A stretch of 52,616 bases of DNA, from the sequence record PZ379594.1; one strand, given 5' to 3'. Below are positions 4,284 to 52,559 of this stretch, in pieces (the stretch's first letter is position 1; each line of letters begins with the position of its first letter). The notes beneath the pieces are model-generated. The model worked only from the letters and a program-made list of their open reading frames with translations, ran no database searches and was not told where the DNA came from. Made by a program: the position numbers and the translations under genes. The stretch comes from a phage.

Positions 4284-4311
4284 TCTAACATTAGTTGGAT
4301 GTGAGAGAGAC
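4284..4311 (+). promoter_or_regulatory. conserved promoter-like motif, copy 1 (CTAACATTAGTTGGATGTGAGAGAGA)
   Basis: One of five copies of a ~25-bp motif, all in intergenic DNA upstream of + strand genes; about 70 nt upstream of the 4380 ORF. Confidence 0.5.
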
Positions 4312-4379
4312 AAAGCTATTCCGTGGTTAGCAATGTCACTGTAACTTAAACTGTAATTAACTTAATAGAGAAATTAATC

Positions 4380-4757
4380 ATGGCACAATATAACGATTTA
4401 AACACTGGCATCATTGGTGCAAACGGCTACAAGAAGCAAGACACTCATCCTGATGTTCGTGGCCGCATTAACGTAGAGGGTATCTGGTATTGGGTATCTG
4501 GTTGGACCAAAAAGGCTGGTGACAATGAATTTACTTCATTGGCACTGACCATCATGACTCAGGAACAAGTTGATGAAATGATGCGTAAGCGTGAAGAGAA
4601 AGCTAAAGCCAAAGCTCAACCTCAAGCTGCCGCTCAACAGCAACAGCCACGCCAGCAACCTTCTGCACAACAGCAAGCACCTGTTCAGCAACAGACGCAG
4701 AATAGTAACTACAACCCGAACGAGCCGAAAGACTTCGACGACGACATTCCGTTCTAA
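4380..4757 (+). CDS. small protein with E. coli SSB-like C-terminal tail (Q/P-rich linker ending ...NEPKDFDDDIPF)
   Basis: The last residues DFDDDIPF match the partner-binding tip of enterobacterial SSB as I recall it; the N-terminal ~70 aa could be a compact beta-rich (OB-like) domain. Confidence 0.6.
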   Translation: MAQYNDLNTGIIGANGYKKQDTHPDVRGRINVEGIWYWVSGWTKKAGDNEFTSLALTIMTQEQVDEMMRKREEKAKAKAQPQAAAQQQQPRQQPSAQQQAPVQQQTQNSNYNPNEPKDFDDDIPF

Positions 4758-4764
4758 TAGAGAT

Positions 4765-4794
4765 GCCCTATGAAAATCTTATGTTTTATAGGGC
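4765..4794 (+). other. stem-loop after the SSB-tail gene (GCCCTAT...ATAGGGC)
   Basis: 7-bp inverted repeat with a 16-nt loop; no clear U-tract, so possibly an RNA-stability element rather than a terminator. Confidence 0.3.
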
Positions 4795-4878
4795 TACATA
4801 ATTGGGAAATTTCACACGAAAACGATTATGTAACCATTTGGGTGTGTAAGCACTGTTCAGCAATGCGTGAGGAATATC

Positions 4879-5604
4879 ATGGGAGCTAGAATCTTCGAAA
4901 TTCCAGTAAATCTGGTTAAAAATGGTGATACGCTTTGGTATGCAGATAAAGAGTACCCAATCGTAAATGTAGTCCGCCTACGAGACTGCACAACACTTAA
5001 CTACTTATTGGGAAAAGACCGAAGCGGGTACTTTAACTTCGAAAACAGTCGAATTGTTAAACTTATTGACAAGCAAAACGAATTCAATGTTCCTTACACT
5101 GCGGTGTCACCAACAATTGAGTTTCCTAACCAAATAAATCCAGTATTCCTTCCTGTAGAAGAGTTTAATAAACAGGAAGTATCCGATGAAGAAGATGTTC
5201 TCGGAAAAGATGTGGAAGTTGGTGATGTTATTTGGGTAAATAACAATTGGGCAACTGTAACAAACGTGTACAAACATCCACATTCGCCAGCCAATAAAGT
5301 AAATGTAGACTATGGAAACATTAAAGGTTTACAAGTACGGCTGGCATTAACTGGAACATTCTCAAGAAAGGTAAGAGCAGCAATGGAAACATTAAATATT
5401 CAAAATGCAATTGAAGCACAACGTATTCTTCTGCAAAAGCTGGAGCAAATGCTCGACTTAACGCAGCTCCCACCAACAGAAGATGGCAGGATTGCAATTG
5501 GCAACTGCAACATTCGCGTGGACAAGGCAACAGTTGTTAAAGCCGCACGCGATGAGATGAAAGCTGCCGCAAGCAAATCCGCAGAGCTTATCAAGAAACT
5601 GTAA
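4879..5604 (+). CDS. hypothetical protein (~241 aa), C-terminal helical region
   Basis: ATG at 4879 with GAGG upstream; long uninterrupted ORF. Confidence 0.55.
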   Translation: MGARIFEIPVNLVKNGDTLWYADKEYPIVNVVRLRDCTTLNYLLGKDRSGYFNFENSRIVKLIDKQNEFNVPYTAVSPTIEFPNQINPVFLPVEEFNKQEVSDEEDVLGKDVEVGDVIWVNNNWATVTNVYKHPHSPANKVNVDYGNIKGLQVRLALTGTFSRKVRAAMETLNIQNAIEAQRILLQKLEQMLDLTQLPPTEDGRIAIGNCNIRVDKATVVKAARDEMKAAASKSAELIKKL

Positions 5605-5656
5605 TTAACAGAGGTCATTCCACTTCGAGTGGCCTCGATTAATTACTGGAGGAATT

Positions 5657-7986: not shown

Positions 7987-8050
7987 TTCCAGGCTGTTCC
8001 GTCGAAGTGCCAAGCGGGTTTTGTACTCGCATTGGCCTTCGGCTTAATTC

Positions 8051-8078
8051 TGAAACATTAGTAGAATTTGATTCTGAC
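8051..8078 (+). promoter_or_regulatory. conserved promoter-like motif, copy 2 (divergent: CTGAAACATTAGTAGAATTTGATTCTGA)
   Basis: Shares the 5' half AATTCTGAAACATTAGT with copy 3. Confidence 0.4.
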
Positions 8079-8190
8079 CTCTTAGGGAAGAAAGGCATTA
8101 TACACTTATCGCCAAATGGGTGTCAAGCACTTTCTTCATTTATTTAATTTTATTCTTATTATTCTTTTTGTTTGGAATATTGGAATAATT

Positions 8191-8219
8191 CTGAAACATT
8201 AGTTGGAATTGAAGAGACA
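8191..8219 (+). promoter_or_regulatory. conserved promoter-like motif, copy 3 (CTGAAACATTAGTTGGAATTGAAGAGACA)
   Basis: Intergenic; close match to the consensus. Confidence 0.5.
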
Positions 8220-8865
8220 ACATCATTGAAGTTCCTTCCATATCGTCTGGGTAGAAGCCCTGTGCACAAGGGTGGAGTGAAAGGTTCGAGTCCTTCCGAT
8301 TGCGCGAGGGAACTTCAAGATGGAATGTTTCCATCATATACATTTATCTTTTTAACATAGGCCAAAGGGCCGGAATACTTATTCGCAGAAAAGCTATTCA
8401 CTTGTTATAGGCGATGTATTGGGATGAATTGGAACTAAATAAGCAAGCTGTTAGGGCTGAATAATTAGAGGGTTATGCCTCATGCTTATGTTAGTCATTC
8501 GAAAATAGGTTTGTGCCACAAGCTGCTGGTGCTCTGAGGAAGTCGGACAAACAGGGCTTAGAGTGGCATAATCCGCACAAAACCGCGCCACCAGCTATGC
8601 CAAAGCAGGTAGGTTGGGTGAATGTATTGGGAAGGGTTACAAAGCCTCTGTGACCTCCGCAGCTTGCCAGGCTGCGGTGCAGTTATGATACGCAGGTCGC
8701 ACCCTAACGGGAGTAATCCTTCGCCAATGCAGTTATCCAGAATTGACACAAACGGTAGGCAGTGGCCCGATTTTCGGCCTTCCTGCGCTGCCCTGTGGCC
8801 TGTTTCCTGGGCCAAAAGATGAGAAGAGAAGTCACAAACACTGAATCGAAAATTGGAGAGTTCCT

Positions 8866-18140: not shown

Positions 18141-18412
18141 TGCAAACTGTATATTCTATTTTTGATATGCAGGAATCAGAGCACCATATGTTTGCTACCG
18201 ATTCCGAAGTTCCCGCAAAGGACGCTGTAATGGCGTTCCTTGAAAAGATTAAGGACAAAGTATTCTATTCGTCCGACACACAGTCTCAAGCAGTTAACGA
18301 TGAGACATTTAAAAACCTCCGAACTTTAATCTCGGCGACTACTTCAATTGAAGAGCTGTCCGAAGCATTAGTTGGATATGACTTCCGTCTTGCAATGTTG
18401 CAAGTCGATTAA
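18140..18412 (+). CDS. small acidic protein (90 aa)
   Basis: ATG overlaps the polymerase stop (TAATG). Confidence 0.5.
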   Translation: MQTVYSIFDMQESEHHMFATDSEVPAKDAVMAFLEKIKDKVFYSSDTQSQAVNDETFKNLRTLISATTSIEELSEALVGYDFRLAMLQVD

Positions 18413-18440: not shown

Positions 18441-19307
18441 ATGGCATTTGCTGCTCCTACACTGGCCTCGAACAAGACTCCTTCTGCTGCACCATTACTG
18501 GAAGCGGGTGGTTATCCTGCTCGTGTTTGCCGTATTATCGACCTGGGCTTACAGCCTGGTTCTGCTAAATATCCTACCCCGTCCTTGAAACTTCTGGTTA
18601 CTTTCGAACTGCTCGACGAGTACATGAAAGAAGTTGACAGTGAAGGTAAAATGGTCATGGTTCAAGACCCAGACGAAGATGACGGCATTATGATGGCGAA
18701 GAATCTTGAAGACAAGCCGCGTTGGTTTGACTTTGAGTTTACCTATAATGCTGACGGATTCATGGGTGAGAACTCCCACATCTACAAATTCGCTAAGGCG
18801 ATTGATGCACTGGAAGTTAAACCTAATCTGGAACAAGGCATTCAGGGCCATCCTGCCAAGAACCTTCCAGATTGGTTGGGCGAACCTCTGATTGTTGGCA
18901 TTGTTCAATATACCAAGCAGTCAGGTAAGAACGCTGGTCAGGTTGCTAACAAAGTTGCTACCTTCTCTCCGATGAAATCCAAAGAGAAGAAAGAAGCTAA
19001 AGCACTGGTTAACCCGACTGTCTTCTTCGACATGTCTGAGCCGGACCTGGAAGTATTCAACAAACTGCCAGGTGGCGAATCTCCGTATGCAATCAAGAAC
19101 CGTATTACTTCCGGTGTTGATTTCTACAAGACTAAGCTGTCTGCACTGTTAGGCGGTAAACCTGCCGATGAAGGCGCTGTACCGAATCAGGCTTCTGATG
19201 AAGAAGTTGATGCAGCTATGAAAGCTGAACTGGAAGCACAGGCTGCTGCAAAAGCACAGCGTGAAGCGGAAGGTGGTGCTGCTGGCGGTACGGGTATGCC
19301 GTTCTAA
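18441..19307 (+). CDS. highly expressed replication-module protein, possibly the phage ssDNA-binding protein
   Basis: E. coli-optimal codons, AAAGG RBS, strong terminator downstream, acidic C-terminal region ending in ...GMPF; function is inferred from position and tail only. Confidence 0.6.
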   Translation: MAFAAPTLASNKTPSAAPLLEAGGYPARVCRIIDLGLQPGSAKYPTPSLKLLVTFELLDEYMKEVDSEGKMVMVQDPDEDDGIMMAKNLEDKPRWFDFEFTYNADGFMGENSHIYKFAKAIDALEVKPNLEQGIQGHPAKNLPDWLGEPLIVGIVQYTKQSGKNAGQVANKVATFSPMKSKEKKEAKALVNPTVFFDMSEPDLEVFNKLPGGESPYAIKNRITSGVDFYKTKLSALLGGKPADEGAVPNQASDEEVDAAMKAELEAQAAAKAQREAEGGAAGGTGMPF

Positions 19308-23226: not shown

Positions 23227-23412
23227 ATGCGCACAATACAATGTCCCAACTGCCATTATGAAATTGCAGAAGATGATTTCATAACGCAGCAATGTCCTAT
23301 CTGTGATTCATACATGCCACTAAACCGCCTGTATTTAAAGGCCGATTCTGGTTTAGGCAGCATCATTCGCATCAATCCCGTGCAAACTCAGCCATTAGTG
23401 GATTGTGATTAA
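23227..23412 (+). CDS. small zinc-ribbon protein (61 aa)
   Basis: Two CxxC pairs (CPNCHYE ... CPICDS); GGAG RBS. Confidence 0.45.
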   Translation: MRTIQCPNCHYEIAEDDFITQQCPICDSYMPLNRLYLKADSGLGSIIRINPVQTQPLVDCD

Positions 23413-23431: not shown

Positions 23432-25450
23432 ATGTCAAAGACTGATGACCTCGGACCGGAGTTTAATGATACAGTAGCCTCGTATCTTGCCAAGCACTAC
23501 GGTGACGTATTAAAAGTCTCAAGAGAAAGATTCTGTATTCTATCTTTGCCATTGCTCCGTCGATATATTTCAGAAAATACTGCAATAGTTGACAGCTATG
23601 AAGAACAAATTCAAGCAGAGTTAGAAGGCCAGGGTCTTGAAAACGATGCTGTATTGCGTTCCGTTTTCAGAGCACAACTTGAGCGTCTTCGCTCTGGCGA
23701 CAAGAAAGACTCGACTGCCTATGCAGATGAGTTGAAGAAAGGTATTCAAGCAGGTGTTACTGACCGTGTTGCAGGTTCCACATTAGAGGAGCCAAACTCG
23801 GAACATGATAACACCGATGAACTTGTAGACAAGATTCTGCATGACCCACATAATGTGGACCCAACTGTAATCCCTGCCAAGGTTGCAGAACGTGTTCGCA
23901 AAATCTTGATGAAAAGTTTCGAAGCCTTTGGTAAATGGCAGTTCCATATTCAGATGGGATTTCCATTTCAAGCACAAGACTTTCACGATGTAATATTCAG
24001 TGTTGGTCAGAAGGTTGTTGATGGTGAGATTGACCGCTTAATAGTGACCATTCCTCCACGACACTCTAAGACTCAGCTCATGAGTATTGCACTGCCCTTG
24101 TATTCATTTTGCCACAATGAATCAAGCCATAACATTATCACCTCGTATGCAGAAGACGTTGTTCTTGAATCGAGTGGTTACATCCGTGCTGTAATGCTGG
24201 ACCCACTATTCCAACGCATATTCCCGAAGGTGAGAATCGACCCCAACAAACGTTCTCTTGAACGCTGGGGTACAACCAAAGCTGGAGTTATGCACGCAGT
24301 ACCTACTGGTGGTAAGCTAACTGGTAAAGGTGCTGGACTTCTTGTTGCAAAATATTCCGGCTGTTTCGTGGTGGATGACGTTATCAAGCCGAAAGATGCC
24401 TACTCTGACACAGTTCGAGCAGAAATCAACGACCGATTTGATAACACCTTTATGTCACGTCTTGCCAACGATGGTTGCATAACTGATTCGTACGGAAACC
24501 AAATTAAGTGTGCCCGTACACCAATGGTTATCATCATGCAGCGAGTTCATGACCAGGATTTAGTTGGTTACATACTCCGTGGTGGCTCTTCTGACAAATA
24601 CCACTATCTCAATATCCCAGCGATTATTGAGAAAGGTGTTGGAAGTGCCGAATGGTATGATAAGTTAATCAAGAAGCAGAACTACACTCATGCTATTCCC
24701 ATTCTGTATAATTTGAACAGGAAGGAAGAGAAGTCTGCATTATGGCCTTCACGTAAGAGCTTAGAATCTCTGGAGGCAATGAAAGAGTCTAACCCATACA
24801 CATACAATTCACAGTATGCTGGCGACCCATCTGCACAAGGCCACGGCCTTATCAAAGAAGATTGGTGGCAAGAGTATGAGCCAGACGTTTTCGACAGAAG
24901 TCGCATAGTCAGAAGTTTTATTACAGCGGATACGGCATCAACTGCCAAATCCTATTCTGATTATTCGGTCCTTAAGCATTGGGGCGTGACTAAAGAGCGT
25001 GATGTTTATTGCTTAGATATTATGCTCGGTAAGTTTGAAACTCCAGAACTCAAGACTGCTATCATCGACTTCTGGAACAAATGCAACAAGTTGGACTTGA
25101 AATGTGTAGGTTGTATTCCTCGTGCACTGTACATGGAAGACAAGTCTGCCGGACAATTCTTGAACCAACAATTTATCAGAGATGGGAGTGTCCGAGTTTT
25201 ACCATTGCCTCGTGATGGGATTAATGGTAATGACAAGGTAACTCGATTCCTTAACGCAATCCCATATTTCTCGCAAAAGAGAATATTCTTCCCTGCTGGT
25301 CATGAACACATTGACCACGTTAGACGTGAAATACTTGGATTCACTTCTTTGGGTAGTGGTACTGGACACGACGATTGTGTCGATAACGTTTCAGATATGG
25401 TTGCAATCGAATTCTCAGGCCCAAGTGCCAACTACTCCGCATGGATGTAA
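23432..25450 (+). CDS. terminase large subunit
   Basis: Large ORF ahead of the portal with a deviant Walker A-like PRHSKTQ; start ambiguous (GTG 23405 or ATG 23432). Confidence 0.65.
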   Translation: MSKTDDLGPEFNDTVASYLAKHYGDVLKVSRERFCILSLPLLRRYISENTAIVDSYEEQIQAELEGQGLENDAVLRSVFRAQLERLRSGDKKDSTAYADELKKGIQAGVTDRVAGSTLEEPNSEHDNTDELVDKILHDPHNVDPTVIPAKVAERVRKILMKSFEAFGKWQFHIQMGFPFQAQDFHDVIFSVGQKVVDGEIDRLIVTIPPRHSKTQLMSIALPLYSFCHNESSHNIITSYAEDVVLESSGYIRAVMLDPLFQRIFPKVRIDPNKRSLERWGTTKAGVMHAVPTGGKLTGKGAGLLVAKYSGCFVVDDVIKPKDAYSDTVRAEINDRFDNTFMSRLANDGCITDSYGNQIKCARTPMVIIMQRVHDQDLVGYILRGGSSDKYHYLNIPAIIEKGVGSAEWYDKLIKKQNYTHAIPILYNLNRKEEKSALWPSRKSLESLEAMKESNPYTYNSQYAGDPSAQGHGLIKEDWWQEYEPDVFDRSRIVRSFITADTASTAKSYSDYSVLKHWGVTKERDVYCLDIMLGKFETPELKTAIIDFWNKCNKLDLKCVGCIPRALYMEDKSAGQFLNQQFIRDGSVRVLPLPRDGINGNDKVTRFLNAIPYFSQKRIFFPAGHEHIDHVRREILGFTSLGSGTGHDDCVDNVSDMVAIEFSGPSANYSAWM

Positions 25451-25452
25451 AT

Positions 25453-25665
25453 ATGGCGGTTATCACTCGTTTAGATGCCCGCTCACGCAAGAACAACTCC
25501 TTCCAGATTCAAGATTTGGAAGGAAACATTTTATGTGTGATTGAGGCAGTTTCTACCACAGAGAGCGACTGTGTTAAGTTAAAGCACGAGTCAAATCTGC
25601 GACTCCACACCTCCGACAACATTCAAATTGTTAAAGGTAATGGAACTATTCTAAGGAAGAAATAA
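25453..25665 (+). CDS. hypothetical protein (~70 aa)
   Basis: ATG at 25453 just after the terminase stop. Confidence 0.4.
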   Translation: MAVITRLDARSRKNNSFQIQDLEGNILCVIEAVSTTESDCVKLKHESNLRLHTSDNIQIVKGNGTILRKK

Positions 25666-28014: not shown

Positions 28015-28023
28015 GGTAAGACA

Positions 28024-28790: not shown

Positions 28791-28798
28791 GTTGCAAT

Positions 28799-28819: not shown

Positions 28820-28845
28820 TCATCAAACAAAACGGATTAATTTAC

Positions 28846-29853: not shown

Positions 29854-29859
29854 TAAATA

Positions 29860-29879
29860 GGGCGGGACTGTTCTCGCCC
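29860..29879 (+). terminator. strong stem-loop after the capsid gene (GGGCGGGA-CTGT-TCTCGCCC)
   Basis: 8-bp GC-rich stem just after the stop; lacks a clean U-tract. Confidence 0.4.
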
Positions 29880-29899
29880 ATAACTTAAGAGAAATAGTA

Positions 29900-31092: not shown

Positions 31093-31607
31093 TGGATATT
31101 CGACTCGAAGAACTACAATCCATGAAGGAGATTGTAGATGTGTGTGTAGGTATTCCGAAGTTTACCTACAACATGCAAATTAATGCTCCCAGACCTCATG
31201 GTGAGTATGCCGCAATCAAATGTCTATCAAGCACCAATCCGGGTTTTGACGAAAACAGAATAGTAACCATTAACGGTGAAGAGATGTTTCGTACCCGTGG
31301 CGTGCGCATCCTGACGTTTGCAATAATGTTTTCTCGTGAGGGTGATGAATTTATCAAGTTTGATAATTCGTTTTACCGTCCCGATGTTCAAGCCAAATTG
31401 AAGCAGGAGAAGTTTGCTGCTCTTGGTAAAGAACCTTTAAATCTTGCCACCATACAAATGGAAACCAATTGGGAAGTTCGCCAAGCGGTTAAAATGCAAT
31501 TCAATATTATACGTGAAGATTTGAGTCCCATTGGGGTCATGTCTGGCGCATATGTTGGTGGCAACTTCTATGATGGTAATTCACTCATCACAACCAAAAA
31601 GGTTTAA
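31092..31607 (+). CDS. tail completion/structural protein (~171 aa)
   Basis: ATG at 31092 overlapping the upstream stop; GGAG 5 nt upstream. Confidence 0.5.
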   Translation: MDIRLEELQSMKEIVDVCVGIPKFTYNMQINAPRPHGEYAAIKCLSSTNPGFDENRIVTINGEEMFRTRGVRILTFAIMFSREGDEFIKFDNSFYRPDVQAKLKQEKFAALGKEPLNLATIQMETNWEVRQAVKMQFNIIREDLSPIGVMSGAYVGGNFYDGNSLITTKKV

Positions 31608-31609
31608 TA

Positions 31610-33058
31610 ATGTCAATCCCAATTTCTGACTTAGTTCAGGTTGATATCGCAATCTCCCCGAACGCCATTGCGACTGATGGTTTTGGGCCATTGCTCTTCA
31701 TGAGCAAAGAGTTTGTACCATCTGTTGATATATATCCAGTTCGTTCTTACACCAGTTTGAAAGAAGTTCTGGCAGATTTCCCTGGTGGCGAGATTGCCAA
31801 AGCTGCTACTACTTGGTACTCGCAGAAACCGACTCCGAAGACTTTCCTGGTCGGCGCTATCAAGAATGATACAATGACTCCAGCAACTCCTGCCACTGTT
31901 ACTGCTGCATCTGCTGGTGTACTGTCAACGATTAAGCTGGAAACTGCTGCAACCCTACAGCTGAGTGTTAGTGGTGTTCAGTATGTCACTGACCCGATTA
32001 ACTTCTCCTCTGCTGGAGACTTTGAAGAAGTTGCAACCCTGGTAACTACTGCACTGTCTTCTGTTGGTGCTGGCGTAACTGTTACTCAAGATGCTGGCAA
32101 GTTTAAACTGACTACTTCTGCAACTGGCGCTAACGCAACTATCAGCAACGTTGGTGGTAAAGTTGGGGAAGTGTTGAAGCTGCAATCTTCCGACAATGCA
32201 GTCACGGTTGATGGCAAGAACGAGTTGTCTATTTCCTCCGACCTGGCTGCCATTGCGGATGCTCCATTTAACTTCTTCTATGTAGGTCTTGACCGCAAAT
32301 ATCGTGGCAAGTCTACTCCGGTAGACAACCAAATGTCTGTGGCGAAGTGGTGTGAAGCATCTAGCAAAGTATTTGGCTGGGGCGACAGCGACAAGAATAT
32401 TCTTATCAACGGTACTAACAACAGCTTCCGCCGTGCTAAGAACCAGAATCTGCGTAACACTTTGTGTGTTTACGATGCTTCTACAAATGGTGACGAATAT
32501 CCGGAAATTTCTATTCTGGGTCGTGCATCAACTGTCAACTTTAATGTTGCAAACTCTGTCCTCACTCTGGCATACAAGAAAGGTCCAGGTGTTGCCACTG
32601 CTGACTTATCTTCTGGTCAGTTGAGCGCACTACTTTCTTGTGGTGGTAACGCATTCATCTCCGTTGCTGGCAACGTAATGTTCTACAACGGCCGCATGGC
32701 TGACGGTACGTGGTTCGACTCCGTACAAGGTGTTGAATGGCTTACTCAGAAAGTTCGACTGAATGTGTTCAACTTGTTCTACACCTCCAATACCAAGATT
32801 CCTTGGACGGACACTGGTGTAGCGATGGTTAACCAGCAAGTGACCCTGGCGCTCGAACTCGCCAAGACTAACGGCCTCATTGCCCCTGGCTACGATAACG
32901 AAGGCGTCTTCTACCCAGAAGGCTACAAAGTTATCTCCACTCCGTTAGAACTCTTGCAGTCGCAGAAGGGTGAACGTATTTGGGAAGGTACTTCCTTTAT
33001 TGCTATCGGTTCCGGTGCAATCCAGGGTGCTGTAATCTCTGGCAACTTCATTCAGTAA
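31610..33058 (+). CDS. tail sheath protein (candidate)
   Basis: 482-aa ORF directly upstream of a ~150-aa tube-like ORF, a chaperone pair and the tape measure. Confidence 0.55.
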   Translation: MSIPISDLVQVDIAISPNAIATDGFGPLLFMSKEFVPSVDIYPVRSYTSLKEVLADFPGGEIAKAATTWYSQKPTPKTFLVGAIKNDTMTPATPATVTAASAGVLSTIKLETAATLQLSVSGVQYVTDPINFSSAGDFEEVATLVTTALSSVGAGVTVTQDAGKFKLTTSATGANATISNVGGKVGEVLKLQSSDNAVTVDGKNELSISSDLAAIADAPFNFFYVGLDRKYRGKSTPVDNQMSVAKWCEASSKVFGWGDSDKNILINGTNNSFRRAKNQNLRNTLCVYDASTNGDEYPEISILGRASTVNFNVANSVLTLAYKKGPGVATADLSSGQLSALLSCGGNAFISVAGNVMFYNGRMADGTWFDSVQGVEWLTQKVRLNVFNLFYTSNTKIPWTDTGVAMVNQQVTLALELAKTNGLIAPGYDNEGVFYPEGYKVISTPLELLQSQKGERIWEGTSFIAIGSGAIQGAVISGNFIQ

Positions 33059-33067
33059 GGGTGAACA

Positions 33068-33523
33068 GTGAAGCAATATTCGTTTTATAATACAGACCTC
33101 CTGATTGACGGTGCTCGTGTAGACGGTTTTCAGGCAGGGCAATCTGTAATTACGGCACGCTACAACGTGCCACAACATGTTCCTGTAATGGATGCTTACG
33201 GCAAACTTGCTGTAGCAACCACTGCTGACCAGTCTGGGGTTATTACTTTCCCTCTGCTGCAAACGGCAGACTGGAATGAAATTCTGTATCAACGTGCACA
33301 GCTTACTCGTGCAACTGGCCTGTCTGGTAACAAATCCCTGTGGGAACCTTTGCAGATTCAGTTGGTGGATAAGATGGGCGACGTTCTGGTTAACGGTGTT
33401 AACGGTGCAATCCTGCAACAGCCTGCTATTGTTCGTGGTGTAACCTTTACATCCAACATGTGGGCTATCTTTGTAGAGCGCCTTACCATCGTAACTGGCC
33501 AGTATCCAGAAATCGGCGTATAA
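33068..33523 (+). CDS. tail tube protein (candidate)
   Basis: GTG start with AAGGG RBS; size and position between sheath and chaperone. Confidence 0.5.
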   Translation: MKQYSFYNTDLLIDGARVDGFQAGQSVITARYNVPQHVPVMDAYGKLAVATTADQSGVITFPLLQTADWNEILYQRAQLTRATGLSGNKSLWEPLQIQLVDKMGDVLVNGVNGAILQQPAIVRGVTFTSNMWAIFVERLTIVTGQYPEIGV

Positions 33524-33538
33524 CATTAAGGTAAGAGC

Positions 33539-33997
33539 ATGGCTTGTGAACTTCGTCAACGCGAGTTACAAGCCGACTCTGGTGATGTAGTCTTGGTTGG
33601 TACTCGTCAATTGAGTGCCAGCCAAGCTCTTGACCTACAAGTCGAGCTTGTTCAGAAACTTGGAACTTCAATCTTCCCATTCGTTGAGAATAAATATAAC
33701 TTTGCAGACATTATTTATTTAATGCAGCAAGGTGGGACGAGTAACGGAGTAACAGAATTAATTAAACGTGTAGTGTGCATGGCAACCATTGATGGTGTCG
33801 AAGTTACTCCACGCACTATGCAAATGAAATACAACGGCAACTTGATGCTTATGCACCATGTGTTTGCATTTGTTTTGGAATCGAACTTCCTTGATTTTTT
33901 CAAGCAAGGGCTCGAACTCAACGAACGCAGACGATTGGAGGCGGTGGAAGCATCCAAGATGGCCGAGCAGAAGAATTCGAGTCCGGAAACGATTTAA
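33539..33997 (+). CDS. tail assembly chaperone, in-frame short form
   Basis: 152-aa ORF immediately upstream of the tape measure; contains the slippery site. Confidence 0.6.
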   Translation: MACELRQRELQADSGDVVLVGTRQLSASQALDLQVELVQKLGTSIFPFVENKYNFADIIYLMQQGGTSNGVTELIKRVVCMATIDGVEVTPRTMQMKYNGNLMLMHHVFAFVLESNFLDFFKQGLELNERRRLEAVEASKMAEQKNSSPETI

Positions 33998-34170
33998 CTG
34001 CAAAGTTCCCGGAAATAAAATACTTCTTGCACCGTCCTGTAATAGAGGACAGTTCACTCTGTTCTCTTAAAGAGTTACAAGATGGGACCTACTCTATTAT
34101 GGATTTGTTGACCTTCCACGCAATACTCGATTTGCGTAACGAATTAAAACCTAAAGAAGAAGACAATGGC
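33539..34170 (+). CDS. tail assembly chaperone, predicted -1 frameshift long form (G-T-like, ~210 aa)
   Basis: Canonical G/GT (P2 E/E') arrangement: the -1 frame opens at the slippery heptamer and ends at the tape-measure start. Confidence 0.55.
33895..33901 (+). other. candidate -1 programmed frameshift site T_TTT_TTC
   Basis: Heptamer in the chaperone zero frame (GAT TTT TTC); the -1 frame has a stop at 33892-33894 and is then open for 92 codons to 34170, 4 nt past the tape-measure ATG. Confidence 0.6.
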
Positions 34171-37100
34171 TAATAACATAAAAGATTTGATGAGAATGTC
34201 CGAAGCCGAATTGATTGGCTTAGGCGCTCAATATGGTCTGTCGTTCAATCCAGGTATGCGCAAACGAGATATGGCACAGCAACTTGAATCAAGTGCTGCA
34301 TCTGGTTGGATGGAAACAAATTCGCAGCTTATGGAAGAAACTCATACAGAAGATGATGGCATCTCTTATGGCACTTCCGACATGATTTCAGACTCAGCCC
34401 ACATTGCACAGATGATTTCTGGCGCTGGGCTGACTGAAACATTCCATGCTGCAATGAACGGTCCAAGTCACCATGTAGAAGCTATTCATGCCTACATGGA
34501 GAAATTAGGTGTATCCGCCGATGATGTGTGGATGCACATGCCCAAAGCAAACCCGAACAAACCGGAAGGTCATTGGGGAATGCTTAATGCGTACATGCGT
34601 GATACGCTGACAGGCCATCAAGATATAATGCCAGAGCTTCCTGGACATTATTCAGGCGACATTATGGGCGAGTATTCCACAAACCGTGGAGATATTGCCA
34701 AGTCGTTCGGCTATCTTGCCCACATGTATGTTGACCGTGAACAGTACGACAACCCAGACCGCTATGCACGAGATGTTTATCGTGTAGCCAAACGTTTAGA
34801 ATCAGAATTGCCGCAAAACTTCCGAGAAGTTGCTGCGGTATCTGCAATGAATGTAGGAAATAAGTCGGGGCCAAAACTTTCATACATGGATTCATTGCCT
34901 AAACTTGGCTCTGAGTCAATTGTTAGTGGTATCCAACACCCTAGACAGCCACTTAACGCATCTGGTTTACCACTTGGCTCATTTGGCAGCGGTATTAATG
35001 CCGAATACTCATTATCTGCATCCTTATCTGGCTCGCCAGGCTGGTCTGATGTAAGTAGGACTCTGTACCAAGATGTTTCTAGCGTAGTTAAGTCTGCGGC
35101 AAAGGTCTATTCTGGTGATTCTGAAAGAGGAATGAACGCGTACCGCACTCAATCTTCTGACAGAGATTTGATTCTTGATTCTGCTTCCCGGTATACAGAC
35201 CTTGCTGATGCTCGTTCTGGTTATGACAACTTGAAGAAAGATATTGGCGATGACCCACGTTATTCTGGTGCATCAATTCGCGGTGTACTTGAAAATGCTC
35301 ACCAATATAATGAGGCCGAAGTTACCAAAACATTCGACCCTGCTGAACGTTTAAGAAATACTGGACCTACTGAACTTGGTACATCCAGTGAGTTTACGGC
35401 AAATCTGAATGAACCGACAAGTTGGAACTCTGCAAGGGATAGAAGAGAAGCTATTGCTATTGCAAATCTCGATAGTGCTGGTGCTGGACAGCCTAGTTCG
35501 GTTAAATACCACAATGCGCTCGAACAAGGTACGCAGGAGTGGCTTGATTTTCGTAAGCAGTACGATATTACTGGCTCTACTATTGGTGATTATCTGGGCC
35601 ACAACCCCGCAACCAATAATAGCCCAATACATACAATGGGCGAGAAGATTGGCCTCACAGTAAGAAAGGATTCTCCACGAGCACGTGAGAACTTTGAGCG
35701 TGGTCATAGGCTGGAAGCATGGGCCAGGCCAAGAGTTGGTGAGAAGTACGGGGTTGAGATAACCGAAACTGGCGCAATCACTAACGATAATTACCCTGGT
35801 ATGATGTACTCGCCAGATGGATTAATTGGTGATGACGCTCTGTGGGAACATAAGGCTCCAAACAACTTTAAAGATTTGGAATCAACTCCTAACTACATGG
35901 ACCAGATGCAACTTGGTATGCTTCTGAGTGGTCGTAGTCGCACCCTGTTTACTCAAACTGTTGGCGAAGAATCTCGTAGCCAGTGGGTTGATGCTGACCC
36001 AACGTGGTTCGAACGTAACAAGAATAAGATTGCATCTTCACAAGCACGCATGAAAGCTGGTCGTGAGTTTATGGAAAGCTCTGACCTTGAGGGCAAAGAC
36101 CTTATTAATGCAACTCGTGAAGTTATGTCTGGTGGTGGCATCTGGGGATACCAGACTCGTGACCACAGGGAAGGTGAAGGATACACGGCTGGTAAGCGTG
36201 GAATGGCAAGGTACAGTGCTGCTGCTGGCACTGATGATGACCCGTTCTTAAGAAACCGCACCGATGCTGGAATTGGTGCTTCTACAGCATCTGCTGTTGG
36301 TGCTGATAGCACAACTGGCAATGACCTGATGGCAGTATCTGTCAAGAAAGGTATTCTCGCTGCACAGGAAGAAAACAAGCTGCGTGGACAAGATGCCGAC
36401 TTTGGTGGAAATGATGGTCGTGGTGGCGGAGGTGGCTTCTGGGATACATTTGATGCCAGCAGTTATGGTATCAGCGGAGGTGGTTCTGGTGGCGGCGGTC
36501 GTGGTGGTTGGAGAGTTGGCGGTAGCTTCTCAGATGACTTCGGTCGTGCTGGTGGAGCATTGGCTGCTGGCGTAGCTGGTGGCAGCATTGGTTCATTATC
36601 CAATGGCGCAATGAATGCCCTCATGATGACTCCTTGGGGTCGTGTAGCTGGCATGGCTATTGGTGCTGCCCAGATTGGAAACGAAGCTCTGGAAGGTCTG
36701 AACGACTTCTACGGCAATTCTTTAGATGCTGGTGTTAATAATCCTAACGAATATTCTTCCATGACTCAGGGCATGGAAATGTTGGGACTTAACTCACAAC
36801 AAGCCAATCGACTCAATCAAACCACACATAGTGCCTATAACACCCTCCTAAATGGCGACCCCAGCGGCGCTGTGAACATCGTTCAGGGAACCCGTGGTCT
36901 TATCACAATTGGCGACATTCGTGCGGCACAGGGCGACCCTGTGGCCCTAGCGCGGATAATGCGTGAGCGTGGTCAGGAACGGGGTTGGAGCCAGGCCCGT
37001 ATTGCTGGTGCAATGCAAATGGCTGGTCTGGACGGTATGGCTCGTGCCTATGACCGCACAGAATACAGCATGAGCGAGGCTGAGGCGAACGTTAAGCGCG

Positions 37101-37855
37101 GAGCCGACTCAAACTATGCCGAAGGCGTTGCACAGCTAGGAATCGCGCAGACGGAGCGTGCTGGCGTACTGCCTGGATACGCTGTTCCGCAAGCTGCAAT
37201 TTCATACGGCAGCACCTTTATTGAGGCAGGCGGCGATGCCGCTAGAACGATGCGTGTGGCCTCCAACGGTACAGCCGATGCAGCACGTAATGTTTATGAC
37301 TTTATCGCAGGAGAAGAGTCAGGGAACCGCGATTTTAACGCAGATGGTTCGGTAGTTACATCGCCAACTGGTGCTAAAGGTCGTATGCAAGTTCTTGATT
37401 CAACTTCTCGTGACCCTGGCTTTGGTGTTCGTCCTGCCAAAGATAACTCACTTGAAGAACGTGCCCGTGTTGGTCGTGACTATTACGATGCAATGCTTAA
37501 GCGATATAATGGTGACGCTGAGAAGGCTATGGCGGCGTACACAGATGGTGCCGGAACTGTTGATGATGCTATCAACAAACATGGGACCGACTGGCTGAAC
37601 GCTGTTCCACTACAGGCACAGAACCGTGTCAAGAAGTACCGCGAATGGGCTTCTCAGGGAGATTCTATTGCAGAAGGTGCAACTGGATTCACCAGAAACG
37701 GACTGTCCTATGGTCAGACACAGCCCACCATAGTTAACGTTGAAGTCAAAGCTACCGTGAACAACAAACAAGCGTCTGCAACCGTGTCAACTCCGAACGG
37801 TCAAACTGTTACCCAAACAATCAACATGGGTAATGGTGCAATGGAACGCAGATAA
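34166..37855 (+). CDS. tail tape measure protein with C-terminal lytic transglycosylase-like domain
   Basis: 1229-aa ORF after the chaperone; Gly-rich segments; SLT-like block EESGNRDFNADGSVVTSPTGAKGRMQV...AYTDGAG. Confidence 0.75.
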   Translation: MANNIKDLMRMSEAELIGLGAQYGLSFNPGMRKRDMAQQLESSAASGWMETNSQLMEETHTEDDGISYGTSDMISDSAHIAQMISGAGLTETFHAAMNGPSHHVEAIHAYMEKLGVSADDVWMHMPKANPNKPEGHWGMLNAYMRDTLTGHQDIMPELPGHYSGDIMGEYSTNRGDIAKSFGYLAHMYVDREQYDNPDRYARDVYRVAKRLESELPQNFREVAAVSAMNVGNKSGPKLSYMDSLPKLGSESIVSGIQHPRQPLNASGLPLGSFGSGINAEYSLSASLSGSPGWSDVSRTLYQDVSSVVKSAAKVYSGDSERGMNAYRTQSSDRDLILDSASRYTDLADARSGYDNLKKDIGDDPRYSGASIRGVLENAHQYNEAEVTKTFDPAERLRNTGPTELGTSSEFTANLNEPTSWNSARDRREAIAIANLDSAGAGQPSSVKYHNALEQGTQEWLDFRKQYDITGSTIGDYLGHNPATNNSPIHTMGEKIGLTVRKDSPRARENFERGHRLEAWARPRVGEKYGVEITETGAITNDNYPGMMYSPDGLIGDDALWEHKAPNNFKDLESTPNYMDQMQLGMLLSGRSRTLFTQTVGEESRSQWVDADPTWFERNKNKIASSQARMKAGREFMESSDLEGKDLINATREVMSGGGIWGYQTRDHREGEGYTAGKRGMARYSAAAGTDDDPFLRNRTDAGIGASTASAVGADSTTGNDLMAVSVKKGILAAQEENKLRGQDADFGGNDGRGGGGGFWDTFDASSYGISGGGSGGGGRGGWRVGGSFSDDFGRAGGALAAGVAGGSIGSLSNGAMNALMMTPWGRVAGMAIGAAQIGNEALEGLNDFYGNSLDAGVNNPNEYSSMTQGMEMLGLNSQQANRLNQTTHSAYNTLLNGDPSGAVNIVQGTRGLITIGDIRAAQGDPVALARIMRERGQERGWSQARIAGAMQMAGLDGMARAYDRTEYSMSEAEANVKRGADSNYAEGVAQLGIAQTERAGVLPGYAVPQAAISYGSTFIEAGGDAARTMRVASNGTADAARNVYDFIAGEESGNRDFNADGSVVTSPTGAKGRMQVLDSTSRDPGFGVRPAKDNSLEERARVGRDYYDAMLKRYNGDAEKAMAAYTDGAGTVDDAINKHGTDWLNAVPLQAQNRVKKYREWASQGDSIAEGATGFTRNGLSYGQTQPTIVNVEVKATVNNKQASATVSTPNGQTVTQTINMGNGAMERR

Positions 37856-37860
37856 GAAAG

Positions 37861-37890
37861 TGCCGGGATTTAATCTCGGCATTCTTCTTT
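37861..37890 (+). terminator. intrinsic terminator-like hairpin (GCCGGGA-TTTAA-TCTCGGC + ATTCTTCTTT)
   Basis: 7-bp stem with one G-U pair followed by a U-rich tract. Confidence 0.5.
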
Positions 37891-37931
37891 AACATTATTT
37901 GAATATGTATTAATTTCAATAGGTGTATAAC

Positions 37932-39029
37932 ATGCCGTGGATGCGTGGTATAGAGATAGTTGTCTCAAGAAAGGATGACCCAGAAACCAAGTCTGTGTTT
38001 AAAGCACACAAGATTGATTTCACCATCCGGTCAACTGTTGGTTGGCCAGCAGATACTGCCGATATTACTCTATACAACCTGGGCGTCGATGAAGTTAAAT
38101 TCCTTCAAGACAAGTCCTATGGTGATATGTATATTGAAATTCGTGCAGGATATTACGAAGACGAGCGTGTCGTTAATGCTGGTCATAATAAGTATCAAAG
38201 CCCAGGTCAGATGGATTCGGAAGTAAGGGTTGAGATTGGTCAAGTCCTTCCAACAATCTTCTCTGGCATCGTAACAAACGCGGTGGGATTCAGACGTCCT
38301 CCAGAACACATAACACAATTGTTTTGTATCTCCAAAGCCTATGGTGCATCTACTGAATTTACTCAGATGAGGGACATTCCAAATGGGGCAACCTTGGAAG
38401 ATGCCATTCGTTCTATGTGTGCTGACTATGGCTTCTCAACTATTTCATCTTTTGGTGTTGAAGAATCTGTATTCAAAACCAAGCTGAAGTTAGGTCGAGT
38501 GTTCCACGACACATTCTTGGAAGAATTTCGGGCCTTACTTGGAGAATATAACTTACTATTCTCAGTAACAACTGGTGAGATTCAAATCTTTCCAGACACC
38601 TACGGCAATAAAGATGCTGTAGACAGAATGTCAAAAGACCGTGAACCAATCAAGCTGGATGCCAATCAGGTTATTGGGAACCCTATTGCTGGAATTGCAA
38701 CATACTCCTTGAATACATTTCTTAACGCCAGCTATCAGCCAGGAATGATTCTGGATGTATCTCCTTTGTTGGGAGAACAATTGCTGGCTAATGGCGTTAC
38801 TTCGGTAAATGGAAAAGGTGTTGTATTAAACACAGACCAAAGCGTGTTCCGTTGGGCGATGGAAGATAAATACTTCATCACAGAAGTTGTCCATCATGGC
38901 TCAACCCATGAAACTGTTTTCCAAACATCCATCACTGCAATGCTTGGTGGCAATACTGCAATGGGCGGTAAAGAAGCGGCTTGGCAGCAAGCCTACTTAA
39001 ACAGTGGAATGGCTATGGAGTCTTTCTAA
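37932..39029 (+). CDS. tail/baseplate protein (~365 aa)
   Basis: ATG at 37932 with AGGTG RBS; Mu/P2-like baseplate module by order. Confidence 0.55.
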   Translation: MPWMRGIEIVVSRKDDPETKSVFKAHKIDFTIRSTVGWPADTADITLYNLGVDEVKFLQDKSYGDMYIEIRAGYYEDERVVNAGHNKYQSPGQMDSEVRVEIGQVLPTIFSGIVTNAVGFRRPPEHITQLFCISKAYGASTEFTQMRDIPNGATLEDAIRSMCADYGFSTISSFGVEESVFKTKLKLGRVFHDTFLEEFRALLGEYNLLFSVTTGEIQIFPDTYGNKDAVDRMSKDREPIKLDANQVIGNPIAGIATYSLNTFLNASYQPGMILDVSPLLGEQLLANGVTSVNGKGVVLNTDQSVFRWAMEDKYFITEVVHHGSTHETVFQTSITAMLGGNTAMGGKEAAWQQAYLNSGMAMESF

Positions 39030-49784: not shown

Positions 49785-50020
49785 ATTTATTCCCAATATT
49801 GCTACAATATTAAGAGTAATATTAGGAATGCGTAAAGTTAAAACCAAATGGTACATGGTCGGTCAGCTGTATCTCGCCGAAATTTGTTCGAACAGTTGTC
49901 TGACTATGAAATAAATTTTTTTTTTTATAATTTTTTATTTTCAATATTGCTACAGAATTAATGAGACTCGAATTGTTACGATATTAACGAGACTAGAATT
50001 GTGGCAATATTATAATTTTT
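49785..50020. repeat. second array of CAATATTGCTACA-type motifs plus an AT-rich tract, upstream of the RNA polymerase gene
   Basis: CCCAATATTGCTACAATATTAAGAGTAATATTAGG, TTTTCAATATTGCTACAGAATTAATGAGACTCGAATTGTTACGATATTAACGAGACTAGAATTGTGGCAATATTATAAT and a T/A run at 49911-49945; same family as the 100-790 array. Confidence 0.55.
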
Positions 50021-50276
50021 ATTTTTGGGCCAGCGGGGAGGGGAAGCCCAACGTCCTATCGGACTTAAATACGGTCCCTACTCCAACTTTTTCCTACAGC
50101 CTATCGGCTTTCAAACAACACCAAGTTAGGCGCTTCGCTTATAGGTCAAGGTCAAAGTCTCCGTGCTGTTGTAACAATGGCACAGGTTTGTGGTATTAGT
50201 TGGTTGTGAATTGTGTAATGGCTACGCTATTATAATCCGTTTCAGTTAAATCATACACAATCTTGGAGACTTACAA

Positions 50277-52217
50277 ATGACTACTATCACCACTCAAACT
50301 ATCAAATCTGTTGTTCCTGCCATCACTGCTCTGGTATACCGTGCCAAAGAGAAGCAGAACTATATGCAGCCTCAGACTTGTGCTATTGCTGCCTTAGCCA
50401 TATTCAAGATGATGACGTCTTTCACTCGTGATGACGTTGTTCCTGCCATTGCGATGGTTGAGCTGGCTTCTGCTTCTATTGCTGATGCCAACCGCTACAA
50501 CAACGACTTGAAAGCAATGCACTATGTTGACCCAGCTATCAACCTCATTGGTCTGGCTAAGCACTTCGGCTTCATCACCATGAACGAAGACAAGTCATTC
50601 CAGCAAACTGACACATGGGTTGAACTGGTTACAACCAAAGACACAGCAGTGCCATTCACTGAGCGTGTTACATCTGAATCTCGTCGCAAGCCTTTCGTTA
50701 AAGGTGGCAAAGTTAAGCCATCCAAAACTCTGAAAGCTGCAATCGAATTCCTGCAAGATACTGAGTACCATGTGGAGACTGAGATGGTTCGCATCATTCA
50801 GTCCATGCTTGAGCAACGTACTTATGGTGGCTTGCAGATGCCAGAAGCAATCCAGACTGAACTCCATGTTTGGAACAATGCTGTAGCAATGATGAATCAG
50901 GACACACTGTATTCTGACTACTTTGCTGACAACCGTGGTCGCCTGTATCATGTAGCATGTGCTGGTCCTAACCCACAATCCTCTGACTTTGCTCGTTGCT
51001 TGTATTCTCACAATGTTGAGAACATCGTTAAGAAGTTTAACGAAGATGGTTCTACTACCATTGCATACAACATGTTCATGGCAGAGCTGGAAGATATTTC
51101 CGGTGGTGAATGGTGCAGTGCTAAGCGTTTGACCTATGTTGCTCAGAATCCGGCTGGTTCACTTGCTCGCATGATGAACATGCCTAAAGCTGAACGTCCC
51201 TCTAAGCCATTCACTTATGTTCGTCTGGCTCTGGATTGGTTCAAGTTTGAGACTACAGGTGAATGCGATTCCCGTGTAGGATTTGGCTTAGATGCTAAAT
51301 GCTCTGGTACTCAATATCTGGCATTCATTGCTGGTAACATGGAAATGGCTCGTGCAACAGGTCTGGTTGATTCTGAGACTAAAGCATCTGACCCATACCA
51401 GTTGAGTCTTCGTGAACTGTTGAAGCTGCTGGACAAGTCTTCAATGAAACCATCTCCTGAAATCATGGATGAATTCTTGAATCCGAAAGCTGGTCGTAAG
51501 TTTATCAAAACTCCATACATGGCTATCCAATATGGTGGTGGTAAAGCTGCTTTAACTGGTTCATCTGACTTCATTGGCTACATGACAGAAGCTCTCCAGA
51601 TTCCTATGGAGAAAGCTGAGGCATTTGCTGAACTGTGTGTAGAAGCAATCCATAACGCATTGGGTGCTAAGATTAACATGTTCATTGAGAAAGCTGCTGA
51701 TGCTGCATACAACCGTTGTGTTGAACTTGGTAAAGAGTACATCACATACCGTCACACTGATGGTCAGGTTGTAATGAAGCCTTGCTTCCCATCTCGTGAA
51801 ATCTGTGATGCATTCAGCATTCGTGTTGACTCTCAAACTCGTGTTATCTTTGGTCAGATTCAGGAAGAGAAACCTTGGACCATTCGTGAATCCAATCCAA
51901 CTAAAGAGGAATTCAAGCGTACTTTCGTAGTCAACTATATTCAAGGTATTGACGCATTGGTTGCTCGTACTGTTGCTGTTAAAGCTAAAGAAGCTGGTCT
52001 TCGTGGTTTCACTTCAATCCATGATTGTTTCCGTTGCTGTCTGGCTGATGCTCCACGTATGATGGAAGTTATTCGTGCAGCATATGTTGAAATCTTCGTA
52101 ACCAACAATCAATTCGAGAATCTGTCTAAGCAACTCGGTGGCATTCAGATGTATCATGAGAACATCGTAACCGAAGAGCTTCTGATGAGCGAACACGCTT
52201 ACTACTTCTGTCAATAA
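50277..52217 (+). CDS. single-subunit (T7-like) DNA-dependent RNA polymerase, short form (646 aa)
   Basis: Catalytic motifs DAKCSGTQYLAF (T7 DGSCSGIQHFSAM), KTPYMAIQYGGG (motif B-like) and TSIHDCFRCCLADA (T7 LIHDSFGTIPADA). Confidence 0.8.
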   Translation: MTTITTQTIKSVVPAITALVYRAKEKQNYMQPQTCAIAALAIFKMMTSFTRDDVVPAIAMVELASASIADANRYNNDLKAMHYVDPAINLIGLAKHFGFITMNEDKSFQQTDTWVELVTTKDTAVPFTERVTSESRRKPFVKGGKVKPSKTLKAAIEFLQDTEYHVETEMVRIIQSMLEQRTYGGLQMPEAIQTELHVWNNAVAMMNQDTLYSDYFADNRGRLYHVACAGPNPQSSDFARCLYSHNVENIVKKFNEDGSTTIAYNMFMAELEDISGGEWCSAKRLTYVAQNPAGSLARMMNMPKAERPSKPFTYVRLALDWFKFETTGECDSRVGFGLDAKCSGTQYLAFIAGNMEMARATGLVDSETKASDPYQLSLRELLKLLDKSSMKPSPEIMDEFLNPKAGRKFIKTPYMAIQYGGGKAALTGSSDFIGYMTEALQIPMEKAEAFAELCVEAIHNALGAKINMFIEKAADAAYNRCVELGKEYITYRHTDGQVVMKPCFPSREICDAFSIRVDSQTRVIFGQIQEEKPWTIRESNPTKEEFKRTFVVNYIQGIDALVARTVAVKAKEAGLRGFTSIHDCFRCCLADAPRMMEVIRAAYVEIFVTNNQFENLSKQLGGIQMYHENIVTEELLMSEHAYYFCQ

Positions 52218-52259
52218 CATTAATTGGGTCAAGGATGACCACAAACTTGGAGACTTATA

Positions 52260-52460
52260 ATGAATACCATGCAAATCAATCAAATCGAAAACTGTTTCAA
52301 TCCTCATCACACCTGCGACATGAGCAATTTATCTCGTCCTACAGTGGAGGAGACTAAAGACTTCTTAGAATTGTTAGCAGAATATAAGCAAGAATCGCAT
52401 GTACTATTGCACGCATATTTGCACAATTCTGGATTCTTTGATACAGAGATACCGTTCTGA
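52260..52460 (+). CDS. hypothetical protein (66 aa)
   Basis: GGAGAC RBS; followed by a strong terminator. Confidence 0.45.
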   Translation: MNTMQINQIENCFNPHHTCDMSNLSRPTVEETKDFLELLAEYKQESHVLLHAYLHNSGFFDTEIPF

Positions 52461-52465
52461 TACTT

Positions 52466-52491
52466 GGGAGCTTCGGCTCCCTATTTTTGTT
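52466..52491 (+). terminator. intrinsic terminator (GGGAGC-TTCG-GCTCCC + TATTTTTGTT)
   Basis: Perfect GC stem with TTCG tetraloop and a U-tract; same hairpin family as the 19318 terminator. Confidence 0.75.
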
Positions 52492-52530
52492 CTAATTAAT
52501 CTTAGAGCTGGCTTCAATATTGTAGCCAGT

Positions 52531-52559
52531 TGTAACATTAGTTGGATGTGAAGTAACAG
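52531..52559 (+). promoter_or_regulatory. conserved promoter-like motif, copy 5 (GTAACATTAGTTGGATGTGAAGTAACAG)
   Basis: Lies after the terminator at the window end, consistent with the control region continuing across the window junction. Confidence 0.45.

Follow-up and report, generated by a model that had tools for sequence, protein, structure and literature searches.

Likely promoters for a phage-encoded single-subunit RNA polymerase, and an adjoining structured RNA locus, in a phiEcoM-GJ1-like coliphage

The stretch of phage DNA analysed here (the window; 52,616 nucleotides, sequence record PZ379594.1) carries, repeated along its + strand, a short conserved motif that is the subject of this work, together with the gene of a single-subunit RNA polymerase (RNAP). 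Judged by its sequence, the window is a phiEcoM-GJ1-like coliphage (Chaseviridae, Cleopatravirinae, Carltongylesvirus), its first 20 kb aligning to coliphages of this type at 88-93% identity with 80-88% query cover, and essentially all of its long open reading frames (ORFs) lie on the + strand. The polymerase gene and the motif copies are listed below, with scores in bits from the model described in the next paragraph.

50277..52217, + strand: single-subunit RNAP gene, the presumed reader of the motif; 646 aa, Pfam RNA_pol PF00940, E=8e-18.
52530..52551, + strand: site A, TTGTAACATTAGTTGGATGTGA; 25.1 bits; 313 nt past the RNAP gene, with a footprint in five genera.
753..774, + strand: site B, core CATTAGTTGCATGTGA at 759-774 with 1 mismatch; 21.7 bits.
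4283..4304, + strand: site C; 23.4 bits; the SSB gene (4380-4757) begins 76 nt downstream.
8050..8071, + strand: site D, first of a tandem pair; 22.1 bits.
8191..8212, + strand: site E, second of the tandem pair; 24.7 bits.
10174..10195, + strand: site F; 23.3 bits; gene 10273-10611 begins 78 nt downstream.
18360..18381, + strand: site G; 21.9 bits; inside the 3' end of ORF 18140-18412.
23387..23408, + strand: site H, marginal, core CATTAGTGGATTGTGA; 6.0 bits, E~1, 3 mismatches; at the beginning of the gene for the large terminase subunit.
37887..37908, + strand: site I, weak, core CATTATTTGAATATGT; gene 37923-39029 lies downstream.
50188..50209, + strand: site J, weak, core TATTAGTTGGTTGTGA; 9.1 bits; the RNAP gene begins 83 nt downstream.

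A preliminary description of this DNA had reported five copies of a ~25-bp motif, all in one orientation and in intergenic DNA, and had proposed them as candidate promoters for a polymerase of the single-subunit type encoded by the same genome. All five were recovered within 1 nt of where they had been placed (22-mer starts 4283, 8050, 8191, 10174 and 52530), and all five lie on the + strand, but the number was an undercount, since two strong copies, at 18360 and 753, and the weaker ones at 37887, 50188 and 23387 had been missed. A search with the 22-mer allowing up to 3 mismatches gave six matches, all on the + strand, where 100 dinucleotide shuffles led to an expectation of 0.00, while the 16-nt core CATTAGTTGGATGTGA at the same tolerance matched 10 times (0.69 expected), 9 times on the + strand, and added the positions 759 (1 mismatch), 50194 (2 mismatches) and 23393 (3 mismatches). 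The seven strong copies share the consensus A-A-CATTAGTTGGATGTG-A, and the coding (+) strand carries all ten copies, strong and weaker. From seven of the window copies a covariance model of sequence alone was built; run unfiltered on the window, it scored the seven strong sites at 21.7-25.1 bits, found an eighth match outside its training set at 37885 (14.2 bits, E=0.002) and a ninth at 50195 (9.1 bits), and left only noise below 9.1 bits. Moreover, when 16-mers were compared all against all without prior bias, no repeat cluster in the window was larger than that of the motif, and the same came out independently for Erwinia phage Faunus.

The earlier delimitation of the motif stands in part. 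The conserved unit is a block of 17-18 bp, A-a-CATTAGTtGgAtgTG-a, whereas the -AGAGA tail that had been attached to it is not conserved, being purine-rich in about half of the copies; the intergenic setting, likewise, applies to the five copies first reported and fails for the copy at 18360. The seven near-consensus copies stand before blocks of early/middle and of DNA-metabolism genes and before a single non-coding RNA locus; packaging block, baseplate block and polymerase gene each have a weaker copy at their head. Site B is preceded directly by a very stable hairpin (689-750, z=-6.6) and followed by a cluster of small early/middle genes from 1048. Site D has a hairpin upstream (8001-8043, z=-4.0) and a spacer of 26% GC downstream, and within ~15 nt downstream of site E begins a structured non-coding RNA with no ORF. 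The block that begins at site F runs on to thymidylate synthase, primase/helicase and DNA polymerase, and gene 18441-19307, 60 nt downstream of site G, is followed by exonuclease and ligase genes.

The comparison across the Chaseviridae covered phiEcoM-GJ1 (hereafter GJ1), Faunus, Y2, PM1 and Proteus PA_03, the last four representing further Cleopatravirinae genera, as well as the Nefertitivirinae Aeromonas phage pAh6-C and Shewanella phage Spp001. A profile search of 405 kb on both strands (E<=10) returned 40 matches, 40/40 on the coding strand and all in the six genomes of five Cleopatravirinae genera, while pAh6-C and Spp001 gave 0 profile matches and, with the core, 0 and 1 matches, which is the chance level; core matches in the five Cleopatravirinae genera number 7 per genome against ~0.6 expected. 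The profile matches occupy ten syntenic positions, given here in the order of the genome from the polymerase gene onward.

Positions 1-3: past the RNAP gene; ~0.9 kb further; 5' of the SSB gene.
Positions 4-6: the tandem pair past the antirestriction gene; 5' of the block leading to the replication genes.
Positions 7-8: past the DNA polymerase gene; 5' of the terminase gene.
Positions 9-10: past the large tail gene; 5' of the RNAP gene.

Syntenic copies of site F are present in GJ1, Faunus, Y2, PM1 and Proteus PA_03, the Faunus counterpart of site G lies at 19063, and the marginal site H owes its place in the list solely to copies at the equivalent position in Faunus (24621) and Proteus PA_03 (26632). 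In alignments of orthologous intergenic DNA upstream of the SSB gene, past the RNAP gene and past the gene for a 1229-aa tail protein, the motif stands out as an invariant island amid diverged sequence; at site C the island AAC.TTAGTTG.ATGTGA is invariant in 6 genomes of 5 genera. A consensus drawn from 21 sites of the other genera alone has its information-rich columns where the window copies have theirs. The copy upstream of the RNAP gene also occurs in GJ1, PM1, Proteus PA_03 and Y2, and its place relative to a neighbouring block at window 50215-50245 (ATGGCTACGCTATTATAATCC, with the invariant core GCTACGC, which precedes the RNAP gene in each of the five genomes examined) has shifted: the E. 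coli phages have it upstream of this block; Y2, PM1 and Proteus PA_03 have it downstream. This shift suggests turnover under selection that keeps a copy there.

The polymerase itself bears out the earlier statement that the genome encodes an enzyme of this class. It aligns to T7 RNAP around the catalytic motifs of D537 and D812 (phmmer), and the alignment columns of D339, K411, Y419, H582 and D583 are invariant across the Chaseviridae and T7. Identity to the window enzyme is 66-77% in Faunus, Y2, PM1 and PA_03 (66-93% over the five Cleopatravirinae genera) and ~33% in pAh6-C and Spp001. The homolog of the T7 specificity loop (IQTRLNLMF...FRLQ in T7) reads RVDSQTRVIFGQ...KPWTIRE in the window, and its two strands are kept in all five Cleopatravirinae genera, whereas the Nefertitivirinae have GADGKGVIFGS...TGWLVES instead. 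Motif and specificity-loop strands are thus both kept in five genera, and the motif is absent from the two Nefertitivirinae genomes, where the loop differs.

Terminators and hairpins accompany several of the copies. Between the RNAP gene and site A lies the following element, which site A follows after ~45 nt.

52466..52489, + strand: intrinsic-terminator-like hairpin, GGGAGCTTCGGCTCCC followed by TATTTTTG.

In Y2, PM1 and Proteus PA_03, compensatory changes preserve this terminator. Site I, too, lies directly 3' of a terminator hairpin with a T-run (37855-37888), past the 1229-aa tail gene, and here the module of hairpin, T-run and motif is kept in 5 genera with compensatory changes in the stem. 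A stable hairpin stands directly upstream at 6 of the 10 sites (z -2.4 to -6.6). A transcript that ends at a hairpin and T-run requires a new start beyond it, which favours a promoter over an RNA-processing site at these copies. The structured RNA with no ORF past the copy at 8191 marks the motif as a signal for transcription and not for translation.

Taken together, the strand bias, conservation, synteny, co-distribution with the polymerase, genomic context and distinctness from T7, SP6 and host promoters support the proposal of the preliminary description, and we consider it probable, at roughly four chances in five on this sequence evidence, that the motif is a promoter read by the phage's own 646-aa T7-family single-subunit RNAP. 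We infer polymerase binding, the start site, the relative promoter strengths and a switch from host to phage polymerase along the following lines. The ~600 bp upstream of the polymerase gene would contain host-type promoters from which host sigma-70 RNAP transcribes the gene, stopping at the intrinsic terminator 52466-52489. The new phage polymerase would then bind the asymmetric 17-18 bp duplex of the motif, the beta-hairpin of the specificity loop (TRVIFGQ...KPWTIRE) reading the central bases by analogy with T7, and would begin rightward transcription at the invariant TG(A/G) that closes the motif on its 3' side, or no more than 1-2 nt from it. With the core taken as -17 to -1, a purine would usually stand at +1. 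The weak copy upstream of the RNAP gene may provide positive feedback. Because the 27-kb late region has only two weak copies, expression there is probably due largely to read-through from upstream copies; no motif of a second promoter class was found in the 316-nt stretch before the capsid gene.

As a promoter, the motif is already known from an in silico prediction made in 2008. In the GenBank record of phiEcoM-GJ1 (EF460875; Jamalludeen et al. 2008), the same motif is annotated nine times as a "putative phage promoter", and the finding was therefore to be expected and is not new. Eight of these nine have a counterpart in the window, the copies at 52530, 753, 4283, 8050, 8191, 10174, 18360 and 37887 corresponding to GJ1 promoters 1, 2, 3, 4, 5, 7, 8 and 9, while the weak GJ1 "promoter 6" (window ~9842, inside an ORF) scores at noise level here. 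The record OL960574 (vB_EcoM_SA91KD, hereafter SA91KD) takes these features over by annotation: the same sites bear the label "similar to promoter of phiEcoM-GJ1", and in many cases a rho-independent terminator is given directly upstream; at the place of site D the record gives a terminator and then a promoter. For Pectobacterium phage PP101, eight consensus promoters specific to the phage RNA polymerase were hypothesised (PMC6989608), and the international committee for virus taxonomy (ICTV 2022) still called the promoters unidentified. The sites described for these three phages do not differ in any essential way from those of the window, with the same motif, syntenic positions and interpretation. 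The present work supplements these predictions with copies upstream of the terminase and RNAP genes, the footprint over five genera, the absence from two Nefertitivirinae genomes and the terminator-promoter modules.

Among better-known systems, the promoters of T7, T3, SP6 and K11 (Autographiviridae) resemble the motif in being asymmetric duplexes of ~17-23 bp with an AT-rich 5' part, present in multiple copies oriented with transcription, and the window shares with this class the placing of the first copy just past an early terminator downstream of the polymerase gene, an initially transcribed region that is often purine-rich, and a polymerase with a common catalytic core and specificity-loop homolog. 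The differences are that the window polymerase has 646 aa against 883 aa, with an N-terminal domain shorter by ~200 aa, and that the phage is a myovirus whose consensus copies head early/middle genes and whose late region has weak copies only. In T7 the late (class III) promoters are the strongest, so that its class II/III pattern is the reverse of that in the window. A motif of the T7/SP6 class itself was looked for and rejected, with 0 matches in the window at up to 3 mismatches to either consensus (TAATACGACTCACTATAG or ATTTAGGTGACACTATAG). The RNAP of the Xp10-type siphoviruses offers a second comparison, as a T7-family enzyme of a tailed phage outside the Autographiviridae that works with host RNAP early and phage RNAP later; the similarity between the window and Xp10 enzymes is weak (tblastn, 22% identity over 76% of the query, E=4e-7), and the relationship is very distant, with another gene layout.

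Three other explanations were weighed against a promoter for the phage RNAP. According to the first, which we hold to be very unlikely, the motif acts at the RNA level, as a processing or cleavage site or as a binding site for a phage RNA-binding protein in polycistronic transcripts, and marks no start site. Such an element would be just as strictly strand-specific and mostly intergenic, several copies adjoin stable hairpins as the RNase III sites of T7 do, and the copy at 18360 lies inside an ORF. However, the motif has no internal complementarity and does not covary with its flanks, which vary freely; little upstream RNA would arrive at sites A and I, situated as they are past terminators with hairpin and T-run; and conservation of ~17 bp of primary sequence is typical of duplex recognition by single-subunit RNAPs.

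That the host RNAP is instead redirected by a phage factor, the motif being an activator box like the MotA box of T4 or the target of a sigma-like phage protein, has still less to commend it. The TTGGAT within the motif matches the -35 hexamer TTGACA at 4/6 positions, of all copies only the weak one at 50188, which precedes the RNAP gene, overlaps a sigma-70-like match (TTGTGA-18-TATTAT, 9/12), and the phage has many small early genes of unknown function. Against this, a -10-like hexamer (TAnnnT) at the right spacing of 16-18 bp past TTGGAT is missing from all seven strong copies, the sequence downstream is unconserved between copies, and in the sigma-70 scan no + strand match overlaps any strong copy, which agrees with the earlier remark that the motif does not resemble a sigma-70 promoter and removes a plain sigma-70 promoter as a candidate for these copies. 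The distribution of the motif, moreover, tracks the clade of the phage polymerase, and a genome with a dedicated RNAP needs promoters for that RNAP. The least likely explanation, a DNA site without a part in starting transcription (a Chi-like or origin-iteron signal, or a class II-type pause or termination signal for the phage RNAP), could draw on the complete strand bias that orientation-dependent DNA signals can have and on the tandem pair 8050/8191 flanking a spacer of 26% GC, which recalls the primary origin of T7, but the copies stand at syntenic spots 60-80 nt 5' of gene starts and right past terminators instead of being scattered in coding DNA, cumulative GC skew has no inflection near them, and the origin-associated elements of T7 are themselves promoters, so that an origin role would add to a promoter function.

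Several observations weigh against a promoter for the phage RNAP. Strand bias and conservation are equally expected of an RNA-level element. The motif has no meaningful sequence likeness to the T7 or SP6 consensus, and the scarcity of copies in the 27-kb late region, two weak ones only, is the opposite of the T7 pattern. The N-terminal domain of the polymerase is ~200 aa shorter than that of T7 and the alignment there is unreliable, at 18% identity, and from such an alignment an AT-rich recognition loop or an intercalating hairpin of the T7 type is not demonstrable. A repeat search in pAh6-C and Spp001 gave no clear replacement motif, and searches of the searchable literature brought up no 5'-end mapping, in vitro transcription or rifampicin data. 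No transcriptomic study of any Chaseviridae phage was found in that literature, and a full-text search for the motif string returned unrelated papers only.

In pAh6-C, the repeat search did bring up two small intergenic repeat families, one GGCTTCTATGGT-like and the other GGCWCTCTATGGTATGTTTA. Each family has 2-3 copies (p about 0.04); both are out of register, and Spp001 shares neither. One of them lies right past the RNAP gene and the other forms a tandem pair, a layout that echoes the window, with motifs too weak for a promoter call. The early region of pAh6-C (23577-34778) also contains 5 copies of a small repeated hairpin, GGCTCTnCGAGCC followed by AAAG.

The stretch past the copy at 8191 contains the structured RNA locus mentioned above, the first part of which is a tRNA-like cassette.

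8217..8335, + strand: tRNA-like RNA, predicted product of site E; leader ACAACATCA, cassette 8226-8318, hairpin GATGGAA-TGT-TTCCATC.

The flanks of the cassette, ACAACATCA and GATGGAATGTTTCCATC, are invariant, while the ~90 nt between them are hypervariable among eight close relatives and yet always form a closing stem of 12 bp and a T-arm-like hairpin with a GTTCGAnTC loop; the GJ1 version folds as a cloverleaf. Folded independently, the versions reach z=-2.7 to -7.2. Compensatory double changes occur in 14 of 27 pairs, and 95.8% of cells pair, against 40-56% with slid partners, values reached by 0 of 500 shuffles. Neither ARAGORN nor Rfam calls the cassette as a tRNA, and a tRNA or other known RNA family near the motif copies was rejected on the same two programs, a permissive scan of 7990-8900 included. 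Directly beyond lies a second conserved fold, 8336-8865 (~530 nt, up to 56% GC), with 150 pairs and no Rfam match, in which 17 pairs change in a compensatory manner as compared with 0-2 in slid controls and 5.1±1.8 in shuffles. This part has no consistent ORF: the deposited records give inconsistent tiny ORFs, and its indels are not multiples of three. The large RNA is confined to part of the genus and was rejected as a family-wide element, since by blastn GJ1 keeps only its two ends, and Faunus and PM1 have fragments of 26-35 nt.

On these grounds we put forward, tentatively and as possible rather than probable, that the copy at 8191 expresses a non-coding locus of ~650 nt, composed of the tRNA-like cassette and a structured RNA of ~500 nt, with no protein-coding gene. 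The cassette could be a tRNA mimic or decoy in the conflict between phage and host.

ARAGORN calls no tRNA gene in the window. In GJ1, the same program calls a 95-nt tRNA-Leu (CAG) at 14456-14550, where the GenBank record instead has a tRNA-Arg with a possible intron, and a paper on Yersinia phages describes some members as being without exactly this tRNA gene (PMC8762354).

The two copies of the tandem pair are 141 bp apart, and the spacer between them (8072-8190) has 26% GC. The primary replication origin of T7 consists of two promoters and an AT-rich tract. By this analogy one may speculate that the tandem promoters and their AT-rich spacer double as a T7-style replication origin; the GC content of the spacer is the sole hint at this, no inflection in GC skew being found at the pair. 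On the minus strand of the same spacer, at 8097-8126, lies a perfect sigma-70 consensus, TTGACA-18-TATAAT, directed leftward and antisense to all genes; GJ1 and SA91KD have it in identical form, Faunus lacks it, and a perfect consensus occurs in ~7% of shuffled windows.

Further conserved elements adjoin individual sites. Directly upstream of site C is a hairpin that, unlike the terminators above, has no T-run.

4255..4276, + strand: hairpin AGGAGCA-TTCATTGAG-TGTTCCT; z=-2.6.

Its loop, TTCAnnGAG, is conserved, and its stem shows compensatory or wobble changes in four genera, including Faunus, PM1 and Y2; it may be a terminator for the phage RNAP or a site of the RNase III type. Downstream of site C, the leader of the SSB mRNA (4330-4375) is conserved across genera and contains a direct repeat, CTGTAAnTTAA (within CTGTAACTTAAACTGTAATTAACTTAA). 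In T4, gene 32 autoregulation provides a model for a translational operator in such a leader, and by analogy the repeat may be one.

The leader past site A (52552-52590) has a hairpin, GAATAC-GGAGAA-GTATTC, followed by GCATGTCAT, which lies at 52580 and is invariant in five genera; GJ1 and PM1 retain the sequence of this leader, and Y2 has lost the hairpin. A second family of repeats occurs at 123-565, 49796-50010 and 52397-52588; it consists of the palindrome ATATTG-NNN-CAATAT, in many cases with GCATGT in front. These palindromes cluster in the gene-poor DNA that flanks the RNAP gene, inside a direct terminal repeat of 3,234 bp (as given in the Mangalitsa record), and could be the operator of a dimeric regulator or part of the early host promoters.

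In the late region, an apparent gap of ~300 nt (the 316-nt stretch 5' of the major capsid gene) is coding-like at 28497-28790, rich in Thr, Ala and Val and ending in TAA at 28788, without being among the listed ORFs that have a standard start codon; a gene not yet annotated, or a continuation of the ORF upstream, may lie here.

For the motif, the value of these results is confirmatory: the prediction made for phiEcoM-GJ1 in 2008 holds across five Cleopatravirinae genera. If validated, the promoter and its compact 646-aa polymerase would make a useful orthogonal expression system, and they would allow one to examine how promoter recognition and melting proceed in a T7-family enzyme whose N-terminal domain is much reduced. 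The part that could lead somewhere new is the structured RNA locus past the copy at 8191, which, if the proposal is true, would be a previously undescribed module of phage non-coding RNA transcribed by a minimal single-subunit RNAP.

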